This document shows positions 11,080-24,637 of a stretch of 24,637 bases of DNA, one piece after another. Made by a program: the position numbers and the translations under genes. Position 1 is the stretch's first letter. Every line of letters starts with the position of its first letter. The stretch lies in UHGV virus genome UHGV-0173695; one strand, written 5' to 3'. The notes under the pieces were generated by a model that was not told the DNA's origin, ran no database searches, and saw nothing but the letters and a program-made list of their open reading frames with translations. This DNA comes from a virus.

Positions 11080-12125
11080 TGAGCAGAAAAAATAAAAAAG
11101 TGCGCATGAGTTCACGCATTGATCTCGCTGATGCGCTCAGGAAAGAATCGTCGCTCAGTGCATTCACATTTGATGGTCCTTATCGCCTGACCGGGCATGA
11201 TTTGCTGGACAATATGTACTGTGCTGATAACGGGCGGTGGTATGAAACCCCGGTGGACTGGTACGGTCTGGCAAGAGCTGCCCGGCAAACGTCCTGGCAT
11301 CAGTCTGCGCTTTACTTTAAGCGCAATGTATTGCTCGGTTGCTATATTCCGCACCCGCTGCTTTCCCGGCAGGATTTCTCGGCGCTGGCGCTGGACTGGT
11401 TTGTGTTCGGTAACGCATTCCTTGAGCTTCGAAGCAATATGCTCGGCGAACCGCTTAAATTACGGCACGCCCTGGCGAAATACATGCGACGCGGAAGCGA
11501 TCTTGAATCATGGTGGTATGTGCAGGATGGCAAGGACGCGTTTCAGTTTCGCCCTGGCAAAGTGTGCCACCTGATGAATCCGGATATTAACCAGGAAATC
11601 TACGGCATGCCGGAATATCTCGGCGCATTACTCTCGGCCAGCCTGTCTCATTCGGCGGACATGTTCAGAAAACTGTATTACGACAACGGATCCCACGCCG
11701 GGTGCATCATCTACATCGGTGCAGCGCAGGTAAACCGCGAAAGCATGGACTCCCTGAAAGAAACGTTACAGGGTGCGCGTGGTGGTGGTGCATTTAAAAA
11801 CGTGCTCATTCATGCGCCCAACGGTGGCAAAGAAGGTGTGCAAATTTTGCCGTTCCAGCAGATCACAGCAAAGGATGAGTTCATGAATGTTAAGGCGGCA
11901 TCCCGTGATGATGTGCTGGCTGCGCACCGCGTTCCGCCGCAACTGATGGGGGCGATGCCGGGTGAAAAAAGTGCGTTTGGTGATGTGGAGAAGGCCGCGC
12001 GGGTTTACGCAATTAACGAGCTGATGCCCGTCATGGAGGCCATGAAGCACATCAATGACTGGCTTGGCGAAGAGGTGATCCGCTTTAACCCTTACGCACT
12101 GTTAGATACCCAGCCCACATCCTGA
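11079..12125 (+). CDS. Q: Portal protein Q
   Basis: 348 aa, size as P2 gpQ; immediately follows P; followed by a hairpin and the non-coding cos-proximal region. Confidence 0.9.
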   Translation: MSRKNKKVRMSSRIDLADALRKESSLSAFTFDGPYRLTGHDLLDNMYCADNGRWYETPVDWYGLARAARQTSWHQSALYFKRNVLLGCYIPHPLLSRQDFSALALDWFVFGNAFLELRSNMLGEPLKLRHALAKYMRRGSDLESWWYVQDGKDAFQFRPGKVCHLMNPDINQEIYGMPEYLGALLSASLSHSADMFRKLYYDNGSHAGCIIYIGAAQVNRESMDSLKETLQGARGGGAFKNVLIHAPNGGKEGVQILPFQQITAKDEFMNVKAASRDDVLAAHRVPPQLMGAMPGEKSAFGDVEKAARVYAINELMPVMEAMKHINDWLGEEVIRFNPYALLDTQPTS

Positions 12126-12549: not shown

Positions 12550-12576
12550 TTGTGCAAGTTTGTGCACTATTGTGCA
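12550..12576. repeat. Three direct repeats of TTGTGCA phased exactly 10 bp apart
   Basis: aTTGTGCAagtTTGTGCActaTTGTGCAg read directly from the sequence (copies at 12550, 12560, 12570). Confidence 0.6.
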
Positions 12577-21933: not shown

Positions 21934-22125
21934 ATGTCAGAAGATAAAAAAGTTGTTAATTTGTTGAGTGACCTTAGTGCTGCTCTGGATAACATTAACC
22001 CTCCTAGGGTAAAAACGACGGGTGATAAAGACGCATTAAACGCAGAGATTCATATATTACTGGCGTTAGTAACTGACAAAATTCAGCGTAAATACCCACC
22101 TGTCACACAACTGGTTGATTTTTAA
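21934..22125 (+). CDS. Hypothetical small protein, 63 aa, in an AT-rich island, opposite in orientation to the early operon
   Basis: AGAGG Shine-Dalgarno 5 nt upstream of the ATG; convergent with the 140-aa minus-strand ORF; a GC-rich hairpin lies between the two stops. Confidence 0.35.
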   Translation: MSEDKKVVNLLSDLSAALDNINPPRVKTTGDKDALNAEIHILLALVTDKIQRKYPPVTQLVDF

Positions 22126-22131
22126 TTTGAT

Positions 22132-22554
22132 TTATGCCGGGCTGCTCCCGGCATCTTCTAGCTGCCATAATGTCTCGTCACCTGATAGAGCAAAACGAAA
22201 TGAGTGAAGTATATCCTCCCGAGAGAAGCTCACGGCTACAGCTGCGGGAAAGTCAAATATAATCCCACCTTCATTTTTAAAACGATTACGCAATTGATAG
22301 GCTATCGGTTTGATTTGCGCAGGAAGAGTATCTACATCTCTTCCATTGACAACAGAATCTTTGTTTTCCAGTACTGATTTAGCGATTAGATATAGATGCC
22401 AGTAACTGGTTACAATTGTTACTCCTGTGATGTGTCGTAAATTAATTGCAATTCGTCCGTTATTATGTTTTTCCGCAAGGTATTTCAGGTTATCAATTAA
22501 TGCTTGGTCATTTTTTGAAATAGTTATTGTGAAATCTGACGTGTTTGTTTTCAT
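22132..22554 (-). CDS. Hypothetical protein, 140 aa, AT-rich; possible moron downstream of cox
   Basis: Internal start MKTNTSDF at 22554, 4 bp after the cox-like stop. The track ORF 22132..22797 has a low-complexity N-terminal extension overlapping the cox-like frame. The sequence is visibly AT-rich compared with the flanking phage genes. Confidence 0.5.
   Translation of the reverse strand: MKTNTSDFTITISKNDQALIDNLKYLAEKHNNGRIAINLRHITGVTIVTSYWHLYLIAKSVLENKDSVVNGRDVDTLPAQIKPIAYQLRNRFKNEGGIIFDFPAAVAVSFSREDILHSFRFALSGDETLWQLEDAGSSPA
22136..22152. terminator. GC hairpin GCCGGG-ctgct-CCCGGC between convergent ORFs (possible bidirectional terminator)
   Basis: Perfect 6-bp inverted repeat 11 bp after the plus-strand ORF stop, overlapping the last codons of the minus-strand ORF. 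Confidence 0.4.
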
Positions 22555-22558
22555 ACGA

Positions 22559-23080
22559 TTAGTTGCCTCTGTTGTTTCTGAGTTGGTCCAGTTTTGAGCT
22601 TCTGCCTGTATAAACTCGCTTACCGTTAATGGTCTGGCAGTCTTCTTTATTAGCTGGAGAGAACTTCCTTTTCTGGCGGTCATACGTCCAGTAACTTTTC
22701 CAGTTGTGCCATTCTGGGGGCTCGTGCTCTGGTAGCTCATCAGCCAACTTGTCCCACTCTTTGGCGTTAAACCACCATACTCCGTCTGAGTTTTCATCTT
22801 CCGGGTTTGTGCGCGTCTTGTGTCCCGGCATTTGACCGCGATGAATGGCTACGCGCAGTGCAGATTTTGTTAGCCCAATATATGCCGCGCCTTTTTCCAG
22901 AGAGCAAAGCCCGGCGATCGGACCATCCAGCCGTAAAGTCGCTCCTTTTTTGTAGGAACGCTTTTTCTTGTTTTCTTCGTGTTCGTCGTCGTTGGCGGCA
23001 TCAATGGATCCGCTGAGTGCGTCACTTTCCTGAAGTGGTTGGTGGTCAGATAACTCTTTATCGGCAATGAAGTCCCGCAT
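22559..23080 (-). CDS. cox: Cox/Apl-like excisionase-type DNA-binding regulator, extended form (173 aa)
   Basis: First gene of the early operon, divergent from C. Central region AYIGLTKSALRVAIHRGQMPGHK...GVWWFNAKEW parallels the P2 Cox pattern (HTH then an aromatic-rich segment) as I recall it. Has an acidic N-terminal extension and a Trp-rich C-terminal extension absent from the 91-aa P2 Cox. Confidence 0.6.
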   Translation of the reverse strand: MRDFIADKELSDHQPLQESDALSGSIDAANDDEHEENKKKRSYKKGATLRLDGPIAGLCSLEKGAAYIGLTKSALRVAIHRGQMPGHKTRTNPEDENSDGVWWFNAKEWDKLADELPEHEPPEWHNWKSYWTYDRQKRKFSPANKEDCQTINGKRVYTGRSSKLDQLRNNRGN

Positions 23081-23183
23081 TTGTTATCCTCTTGCGTTGG
23101 TGCGCTTGTTGCGCCTTGTGATGGTTTGTTTTGGTTTGTTTTCTTCACCCTGTGGTGAAGAGTAAAAAGAGGATACTCATCGT
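23081..23183. promoter_or_regulatory. Immunity switch region with divergent promoters (Pe leftward, Pc rightward) and operator-like repeats
   Basis: Tandem direct repeat GGTTTGTTTT x2 (23123-23142) followed by inverted repeat TTCACC-ctgt-GGTGAA (23144-23159), between divergent cox and C. P2 C repressor is known to bind direct repeats flanking the early promoter. Confidence 0.5.
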
Positions 23184-23525
23184 ATGGTGAACATGTCAAG
23201 AGATTACGCCAAAAAACTAAAGGCGATCAGAAATGCGGAAAAACTTACACAATCTCAGTTTTCGCAAGTAACGGGGGTTTCTGTAGGGACTATAGGAAAT
23301 TATGAGTCTGGATATAAACCTGCGCGCATTGAGGTTGTAGAAAAAGTAATCCAAGTCGAGCGATTCGAAAAATACACTATGTGGATACTTCACGACAAAA
23401 CATTTCCCGCTGCCGGGCAGGTTGCTCCGGCTCTCTCTCTTGATGGCTCTATTCAGTCGGAGGGCGATCAGGTTTCAATCGGTATTACCCAAAAATCACC
23501 CCGATCAGGCCGCAATGTTGGCTGA
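23184..23525 (+). CDS. C: Immunity repressor, P2 C-type
   Basis: 113 aa; KLKAIRNAEKLTQSQFSQVTGVSVGTIGNYESG...FEKYTMWIL...GQVAPAL parallels P2 C as I recall it. Start could be 23184 or the in-frame ATG at 23193. Confidence 0.85.
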   Translation: MVNMSRDYAKKLKAIRNAEKLTQSQFSQVTGVSVGTIGNYESGYKPARIEVVEKVIQVERFEKYTMWILHDKTFPAAGQVAPALSLDGSIQSEGDQVSIGITQKSPRSGRNVG

Positions 23526-23594: not shown

Positions 23595-24587
23595 ATGTCG
23601 ATTAAGCAACTCAAAGACGGACGTTATCAGGTCGATGTCAGACCGCAGGGGGCGGAAGGAAAGCGGATTCGAAAAATCTTTGCCCTGAAATCAAAGGCTC
23701 AGGAGTTTGAGAAGTATGTGTTACAGAACTTTCATGACAAGCCATGGCAGGCTAAGCCAGCTGATCAGCGGCGATTATCAGAGCTGCTTGATGCGTGGTG
23801 GATGCTTGATGGGCGTAATCAGGCTTACGGGGATAGCTACAGGGTTAGGCTAGGGAAGGTTGTTCGTGAAATGGGAGATCCTCGCGCCAGTCAGATGACG
23901 CGAAAATTTATGCTTGAATATCGGTCAGAGAAATTACAGGCCGGATTAATGCCGTCCAGTATTAATCGTGACTTATGCGTACTGTCTACCATGTTCACGG
24001 TGCTGATTGAAGCTGAGGTCTTTCACAACGCGAACCCTGTACGCGGTATACGAAAACTGAAAGTTCAGAACACAGAGATGGCCTTTCTTTCTGATGATGA
24101 GATTGAACGGCTTCTTGAGCGACTGGAGGGTGATGCGCGTCGTGTTGCCATTCTGTGTCTTTCTACTGGTGCCCGATGGAGTGAAGCATCGGAACTACGT
24201 GGAGAGCATATCGTTGGCAACCGGGTGACGTTCTTTAACACCAAAAACGGAAAATCCCGTTCGGTTCCTGTGGCGGATTCGGTCGTGCCTCTGATTAAAA
24301 CCCGTCGAACGGGGTTATTGTATCAGGTTGATTATCTGAAGTTCCGGGAGATTCTTCAGGAGGTGAAACCGGATTTGCCGAAGGGGCAGGCTACGCATGT
24401 CATGCGTCATACATTTGCCACACACTTTATGATGAATGGCGGAAATATTGTTACGTTGCAACGAATCCTGGGGCACGCAACGATTCAGCAAACAATGACG
24501 TACGCTCATTTTTCGCCGGACTTCTTACAGGACGCGATCAACTTTAATCCGCTGGCTGAAAGTGTCCATAAACTGTCCATCGATTAG
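23595..24587 (+). CDS. int: Tyrosine integrase (P2 Int family)
   Basis: 330 aa; C-terminal catalytic region HVMRHTFATHFMMNGGNIVTLQRILGHATIQQTMTYAHF (R-H-x-x-R...Y); located after C and at the prophage edge as in P2. Confidence 0.95.
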   Translation: MSIKQLKDGRYQVDVRPQGAEGKRIRKIFALKSKAQEFEKYVLQNFHDKPWQAKPADQRRLSELLDAWWMLDGRNQAYGDSYRVRLGKVVREMGDPRASQMTRKFMLEYRSEKLQAGLMPSSINRDLCVLSTMFTVLIEAEVFHNANPVRGIRKLKVQNTEMAFLSDDEIERLLERLEGDARRVAILCLSTGARWSEASELRGEHIVGNRVTFFNTKNGKSRSVPVADSVVPLIKTRRTGLLYQVDYLKFREILQEVKPDLPKGQATHVMRHTFATHFMMNGGNIVTLQRILGHATIQQTMTYAHFSPDFLQDAINFNPLAESVHKLSID

Positions 24588-24637
24588 TTATAATTTGTGT
24601 TAATTTGTTCCCCCTGTTTTGGCTTATTCGTTGAAAA

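Follow-up and report, generated by a model that had tools for sequence, protein, structure and literature searches.

The open reading frame at positions 22559–23080 on the minus strand very probably encodes a full-length, 173-residue Cox protein that would belong to the larger Cox proteins of "group 2", as this group is described in the accessible part of Nilsson et al. 2011 (PMC3448106), and that is carried by a PhiECO5-type prophage between serS and dmsA. On the sequence comparisons and structure models, the additions on either side of its Cox core are read as tails rather than as a recognisable added domain. Throughout, "the window" denotes the whole 24,637-nt stretch of the viral genome UHGV-0173695 that was analysed.

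The cox gene, its start and its core

The gene, its ribosome-binding site and the segment encoding the core are located as follows.

22559–23080, minus strand: long cox gene, 173 codons plus a TAA stop (open reading frame list, PF10743, PHROG 23196 and identical annotated coding sequences)
23087–23093, minus strand: Shine-Dalgarno sequence AAGAGGA, with a 6-nt spacer to the cox ATG (ending 7 nt from it; read from the sequence)
22676–22930, minus strand: codons 51–135, Cox winged-helix core and helices α3 and α4 with the PPEWHNWKSYW motif (AF2, Foldseek, alignment)

The frame reads from the ATG at 23080 to the TAA at 22559 and opens the leftward operon. At 173 residues, its product is 1.9 times as long as P2 Cox (91 aa; cox of AF063097). 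An earlier note on this DNA had described the first early gene as encoding a Cox-like switch protein of nearly twice the length of P2 Cox, and the family, the canonical position and the length all agree with that description. Pfam Phage_Cox (PF10743) matches residues 58–129 over profile positions 11–86 of 87 (E = 1.9e-7), with a score of 31.2 bits against a gathering cut-off of 27.5. PHROG 23196, labelled "transcriptional regulator", spans residues 1–173 end to end (E = 1e-116), and the general Cox PHROG, phrog_1831, matches residues 28–134 (E = 2e-16). Pairwise similarity to P2 Cox is weak by BLASTP (E = 0.003 over 55 residues), and hhalign, run with the family alignment against P2 Cox as a single sequence, reached a probability of only 10% and was not relied on. 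A phmmer search of PDB sequences returned only a chance match to NDUFA12 (E = 3.4) and did not reach P2 Cox (4LHF) by sequence alone, and NCBIfam gave no match to the protein. A weak PADLOC hit to mad1 in the winged helix-turn-helix (wHTH) region (E = 0.0016) was taken as generic wHTH similarity and not as a defence role.

With 32 close homologues as input, AF2 first gave a poor model (mean pLDDT 51.6); a broader alignment gave a better core (pLDDT 79–90) and left the tails unchanged. The top PDB match in Foldseek is P2 Cox (4LHF), with E = 9.6e-4, a probability of 1.00, a TM score of 0.72 and an rmsd of 2.7 Å over 78 of 79 columns, and 4LHF was also the top fold match for the first model (TM 0.58). 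As modelled, residues 51–135 are shown to form a P2-Cox-like winged helix with two C-terminal helices after it. When P2 Cox is included in the alignment, residues A65, G69, P85, P93, W109, W124 and W127 correspond to P2 Cox A18, G22, P38, P45, W61, W81 and W84, and these seven positions, the initiator Met apart, are invariant across the short and long forms. They include P85, W124 and W127, the counterparts of the P2 Cox residues P38, W81 and W84 that are needed for function and implicated in oligomerisation, which the two tryptophans drive (PMC3936717). The profile score above cut-off and the fold match bear out the Cox-like central HTH region that had been read from the sequence, the alignment makes the similarity to the family clear, and the product is a genuine member of the Cox family, whose proteins govern the choice between lysis and lysogeny and the excision of the prophage. 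Five of its six tryptophans (W102, W103, W109, W124 and W127) lie inside the Cox-homologous domain. What had been taken for a Trp-rich C-terminal extension is thus mostly the canonical Cox α4 oligomerisation helix, and the true extension, residues 136–173, is Trp-free and basic.

Characterised Cox, Apl and Xis proteins are typically small, about 80–95 aa, a size that this 173-residue product does not match. Because uncharacterised family members span 100–192 aa continuously, a small size is typical rather than defining.

Given the unusual length, a wrongly annotated start was weighed as an alternative, with a normal-length Cox starting downstream and the N-terminal "extension" being untranslated leader. 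Conservation of the first 36 nt at the nucleotide rather than purely the protein level would suit this alternative, as would the variable and predicted disordered nature of the acidic stretch that follows and the fact that one homologue entry, P0052 (136 aa, a Salmonella variant), was called from an internal Met. However, a search for in-frame ATG, GTG or TTG codons between codon 1 and M84 found none, the downstream non-ATG start raised in the earlier note included, and M84, the next in-frame start, sits within the recognition-helix region. The strong Shine-Dalgarno sequence and the ATG are kept as a pair in all related loci, even at 36–39% protein identity. Homologues of 161–192 aa from E. 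coli, Shigella, Salmonella, Yersinia and Serratia, together with two distant relatives, keep the frame from M1, and all indels among more than 30 homologues are in frame, many of them falling in the acidic region. Nei-Gojobori estimates from six loci gave dN/dS values of 0.35 for the acidic linker (codons 13–40), 0.04 for the basic patch (codons 41–57), 0.08 for the winged-helix core (codons 58–118), 0.016 for the Trp motif (codons 119–135) and 0.125 for the C-tail (codons 136–165), with dS close to 1 in all five regions. The lack of a downstream start, the conserved Shine-Dalgarno–ATG pair, the in-frame indels and the dN/dS values together make a normal-length Cox from a downstream start highly improbable, and translation from the ATG at 23080, giving the full-length protein, is well supported by the comparisons.

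The N- and C-terminal tails

Outside the core, four segments were distinguished.

23045–23080, minus strand: codons 1–12, conserved N-terminal motif MRDFIADKELSD, constrained also at the nucleotide level (alignment, synonymous differences)
22973–23044, minus strand: codons 13–36, acidic linker of net charge −8, variable, indel-rich and predicted disordered (alignments A1/A2, pLDDT, charge)
22931–22972, minus strand: codons 37–50, basic patch NKKKRSYKKGATLR of net charge +7, just before strand β1 (dN/dS, charge)
22562–22675, minus strand: codons 136–173, true C-terminal extension of net charge +7, Trp-free and conserved (KRKF..KEDC..GKRVY..RKSKLEQ; dN/dS, alignments)

The N-terminal motif follows the pattern M-x-x-x-I-A-D-K-E-L-S-D, in which I5, A6, L10 and S11 are invariant in 32 homologues. 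The nucleotides of codons 1–12 are identical in the Salmonella locus, and the proportion of synonymous differences (pS) in these codons is 0.12 versus about 0.55 across the rest of cox. Part of the N-terminal conservation thus appears to lie at the DNA level: codons 1–12 overlap the candidate lysogenic promoter Pc described below, and if this candidate is indeed Pc, the overlap would explain the low pS. The acidic N-terminal segment singled out in the earlier note is present and corresponds to residues 19–41. Residues 1–36 carry a net charge of −10, the acidic region differs among homologues by 0–15 residues in length as well as in sequence, and residues 1–38 have pLDDT below 50 in both AF2 models. 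In the basic patch, K45 is invariant in the homologue alignment; a Salmonella clade (P0049–P0055) carries a Leu-rich segment in place of the patch, so the make-up of the N-tail is not uniform.

In the C-tail, F140, K145 and R160 are invariant in the 32-homologue alignment, and the distant homologues P0067 and P0068 (36–39% identity) also carry the tail, in the form YWTYDR...RRSKLE. It is modelled at a pLDDT of only 55–62, with a weak β-hairpin and a helix predicted at 148–170 in both AF2 models. Pfam, NCBIfam, PADLOC and the PDB yielded nothing for the parts outside the Cox core, and in PHROGs the C-tail is matched only by the protein's own family.

A profile search found 281 relatives of 118–192 aa; with the whole-library search included, lengths ranged over 100–192 aa, and the sampled relatives show an acidic-then-basic N-tail of varying length. 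The 173-residue form is therefore the upper part of a continuum and not a discrete fusion. Of the earlier suggestion of a Cox-like switch protein that may combine excisionase and repressor roles with an added domain, the assignment as a Cox-type switch protein is supported. The added domain is not: the N-terminal extension is predicted disordered and is rich in indels, and the C-tail has neither a family nor a structure match and a low pLDDT. Nor is extra length needed for the dual role, since acting as both excisionase and repressor is normal for short Cox and Apl.

These observations allow different views of what the tails contribute. They might be translated but mostly lack a protein function, so that the protein works like a short Cox, with the N-terminal codons kept by the overlap with Pc or other regulatory DNA and the acidic stretch being a tolerated spacer. 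The low pS of codons 1–12 is what this view would predict, as is the placement of the best plus-strand promoter candidate, whose −35 lies in codons 5–7 and whose extended −10 lies over the cox Shine-Dalgarno sequence; the variability of the acidic region agrees with it, and so does the N-tail of the wider subfamily, which varies continuously from about 10 to 70 residues as total length runs from 100 to 192 aa. Selection speaks differently for the rest, however. With dS saturating, purifying selection on the basic patch and the C-tail is strong, relatives too divergent for DNA alignment again show an acidic run and then a basic patch, and the IA[DE][KE] part of the N-terminal motif outlasts synonymous and conservative changes in P0067 and in the P0049 clade. 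We therefore think it unlikely that the tails are mostly without function.

At the other extreme, the conserved C-tail, possibly together with the N-terminal motif, could be a true added functional module, in line with the idea of the earlier note, that gives a function P2 Cox lacks, such as an integrase-contact tail or a motif for host-factor docking or degradation. Phage lambda Xis recruits Int through a disordered C-terminal tail, a parallel that favours the former option, and conservation of the C-tail down to 36–39% identity, its three invariant residues and the weak hairpin and helix seen in both models point the same way. Against this, neither sequence databases nor confident modelling supply a module outside the Cox core, and many group 2 Cox proteins of 118–137 aa share the int-C-cox context without having a C-tail, indicating that this tail is dispensable for the core role of the family. 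An added module is thus rather unlikely, and we retain the reading of a full-length Cox with tails.

The switch region and the attachment arm

The genes and candidate sites around cox are listed below.

23184–23525, plus strand: C-type immunity repressor, 113 aa, HTH_3 (Pfam HTH_3, E = 5.6e-10)
23595–24587, plus strand: tyrosine integrase, 330 aa (Pfam Int_N and Phage_integrase)
23170–23199, minus strand: candidate early promoter Pe, TTGACA, 18-nt spacer, TATCCT (10 of 12 consensus matches; best minus-strand score)
23145–23159 and 23177–23191, plus strand: direct repeats TCAYCNTRTGGTGAA, candidate C-repressor operators (repeat family D1; they flank the Pe −10)
23095–23139, minus strand: candidate cox-boxes, four exact ACAAnnC direct repeats with a 10-bp period and a fifth, degenerate one (CAAC) in phase (pattern, TRF)
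23061–23090, plus strand: candidate lysogenic promoter Pc, −35 TCGGCA, 18-nt spacer, extended −10 TGTTATCCT (best plus-strand position-weight score)
24594–24608, minus strand: ACAAATTAACACAAA, a pair of ACAAA boxes in phase just beyond the int stop, candidate Cox excision site (pattern search)

The C gene, annotated as immunity repressor GpC in ON470623, starts 103 bp from cox on the opposite strand and is followed by int. The order of int, C (HTH_3), an interval of about 103–110 bp and a long cox is identical in all 11 related loci examined, and judged by sequence the layout of the window is the int-C-cox arrangement of P2-type phages. Both Pe hexamers are kept in every locus compared, and the TTGACA-18-TATCCT sequence is likely to be Pe. 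The TCAYCNTRTGGTGAA repeats give way to GATAACC-type repeats exactly in those loci that have a different N-terminal half of C, which fits C operators that define immunity. The ACAAnnC block, for which TRF gives a period of 10, is kept in all loci regardless of the type of C and whatever the divergence of Cox, with the phasing retained in the distant locus L015; ACAA-N6-ACAA-N6-ACAA, which matches at the switch, is expected by chance only 0.01 times.

A consensus promoter scan found no plus-strand promoter with at least 9 of 12 matches. The Pc candidate has a weak −35 at 23061–66 and an extended −10 at 23082–23090, and overlaps the cox Shine-Dalgarno sequence and first codons; L014 and L015, the two distant loci, share its TGnTAT(C/T)CT motif. 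The cox-boxes and Pc are candidates assigned by pattern, Pc being a predicted and not a mapped promoter.

A perfect 9-bp inverted repeat, TATCCTCTT / AAGAGGATA, was also seen at 23085–23093 and 23167–23175. Reverse-complementing the Shine-Dalgarno sequence of C gives the −10 of Pe, and doing so with that of cox gives the extended −10 of the Pc candidate, so that each promoter overlaps the ribosome-binding site of the rival gene.

The region is mosaic, as seen when window positions 23139–23437 were compared with loci L005, L008 and L009. In the E. albertii locus (L005), int is identical to that of the window and cox is identical except at its 3' end, and the N-terminal half of C and the operator repeats at Pe are only 52–73% identical. 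In L006 and L007, the C of the window is retained and cox has diverged to 72–95%. These combinations indicate that exchange of immunity (C with its operators) is independent of exchange of Cox, the junction lying near 23139. A further variation was observed in the distant metagenome locus L015 (2308–3709), where four tandem HTH_3 genes (111, 115, 91 and 105 aa) stand between int and cox in place of the single C repressor.

At the attachment arm, ACAAA-N5-ACAAA occurs only twice in the window when both strands are counted (0.07 expected), once at the switch and once at 24594–24608. The latter lies between the att core, which is a copy of the serS terminator, and a pair of ATGGACA repeats. The box region of the arm is broadly kept in seven loci, although the first box reads GCAA, not ACAA, in three of them (L007–L009). 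A search of the att arms of L014 and L015 for cox-box-like repeats gave nothing clearly similar to the switch repeats. The serS terminator sequence copied in the att core reads AAAAAGCGCC(C/T)GC(A/G)GGCGCTTTAA. The 3' end of int contains two copies of ATGGACA at a distance of 11 bp (window 24563–24580, minus strand; L012 740–765), and inverted GTCCAT repeats are present at the other prophage end in UTI89; these repeats are probably integrase arm-type sites. Elsewhere in the window, a third match to ACAA-N6-ACAA-N6-ACAA, ACAATAGTGCACAAACTTGCACAA, lies at 12550–12573 (minus strand) in a mostly non-coding stretch near the expected cos, after a 348-aa open reading frame that ends at 12125 and is probably the portal gene. 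It could be a chance match or another Cox-type site.

[quoted passage not shown] By analogy, Cox would be made first, from Pe, as are P2 Cox and 186 Apl. It would then bind cooperatively to the ACAAnnC boxes at 23095–23139, which lie one helical turn apart between the face-to-face Pe and Pc, and would thereby shut off the lysogenic promoter Pc. Binding to the similar phased repeats at 24594–24608, next to int, would direct excision.

Relatives of the long Cox and the possible role of its tails

The protein resembles P2 Cox in the position of its gene, first in the early operon and divergent from C and int, in the winged-helix fold with two C-terminal helices, in the seven conserved core residues and in having direct repeats in phase, candidate sites in the window, both at the switch and close to att. 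It differs in about 49 extra N-terminal and 38 extra basic C-terminal residues, in a core identity of only about 21–31%, in candidate boxes of the form ACAAnnC in place of the P2 cox-box TTAAAG/CNCA and in having a 113-aa HTH_3 protein as its partner repressor. The likeness to 186 Apl lies in the combination of excisionase and switch regulator, the arrangement proposed here for the window cox; Apl binds 5–7 direct repeats with 10–11 bp spacing between convergent pR and pL and at att (PMC7498355). In contrast, Apl is a short protein from another Cox/Apl subgroup, with an HTH predicted to lack a wing; in solution it is a monomer, and the switch it works with is of the CI/CII type (PMC7498355).

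Among the closest known systems is PhiECO5 of UTI89. Its Cox is 99% identical to that of the window (171 of 173 residues) and is the same type of protein, and it shares the serS/dmsA integration site and the gene order. According to the accessible part of Nilsson et al. 2011 (PMC3448106), PhiECO5 is assigned to the tentative immunity class IX, and group 2 Cox proteins exceed those of group 1 in size, only six conserved residues being common to both groups. These six agree with the seven invariant positions found here, and we infer that PhiECO5 Cox belongs to group 2. That part of the source holds no analysis of the tails of group 2 Cox.

Cox proteins of intermediate size (118–137 aa; of the P2SIDE7, pro147 and pro483 type, and the 126-aa protein of Arsenophonus pArsFIN13) have in common with the window protein the PPEWHxWK motif, an acidic-then-basic run before β1 and an adjoining divergent HTH repressor. 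They lack the 38-residue C-tail, have shorter N-tails and are 27–36% identical to it. In the Arsenophonus locus (L003), A. nasoniae pArsFIN13, the 126-aa Cox gene, with the PPEWHSWKDYWMYDR motif shared with the window, is carried on a 33.6-kb circular plasmid-like element with RepA and Soj (ParA-like) genes, and the 3 kb flanking cox on each side hold no integrase. The finding points to a P2-like phage-plasmid whose Cox may serve purely in switch regulation.

The long form itself is already known, being annotated in databases and noted in the literature, as far as the accessible part of PMC3448106 goes. Coding sequences identical to the window gene are present in the phage records PV468777, ON470599 and ON470623, as "regulatory cox family protein" or "regulatory protein". 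Among 5426 complete E. coli genomes, 357 have this gene or a close variant of it, ST131 strain EC958 being one; the PGAP name is mostly "Cox family DNA-binding protein". A scan of contigs gave a single locus (E. albertii), and the diversity used here was drawn from E. coli genomes and further encoding contigs.

Beyond cox, a 140-aa open reading frame (22132–22554, minus strand) begins 4 nt past the cox stop and is followed by a convergent 63-aa one (21934–22125, plus strand); neither has a match in Pfam, PHROGs, NCBIfam or PADLOC. The slot between cox and the DUF4761 gene differs in every related locus and so behaves as a hotspot for accessory genes (morons).

To our knowledge, the mechanistic and structural work on Cox and Apl was all done on short forms, and a literature search on recombination directionality factors (RDFs) with acidic or extended tails yielded nothing relevant. 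Our best guess at a role for the tails is accordingly speculative. The basic segments may add non-specific DNA contacts or contacts between subunits, and the acidic tail may hold these in check through electrostatic self-inhibition, thereby setting the concentration at which filaments form. A further, tentative reading, which we hold to be on the improbable side, is that the tails add a regulatory layer absent in P2 Cox, either with the acidic N-tail as an intramolecular DNA mimic or with the C-tail recruiting the integrase in the manner of lambda Xis. As a DNA mimic, the N-tail could mask both basic segments until a threshold concentration or a partner releases it; such a partner might be Int, a factor from a satellite phage, a host protease or the C repressor.

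The int-C-cox switch of the window is thus a standard one of P2 type; it belongs to the PhiECO5 class, common in ExPEC lineages, ST131 and UTI89 among them. Its significance is small beyond a tidy annotation, though the tails of the long form may bear on the tuning of excision factors that form filaments. If the tails do add a regulatory layer, the long Cox would be a gated switch and excision factor and not a simple cooperative binder.
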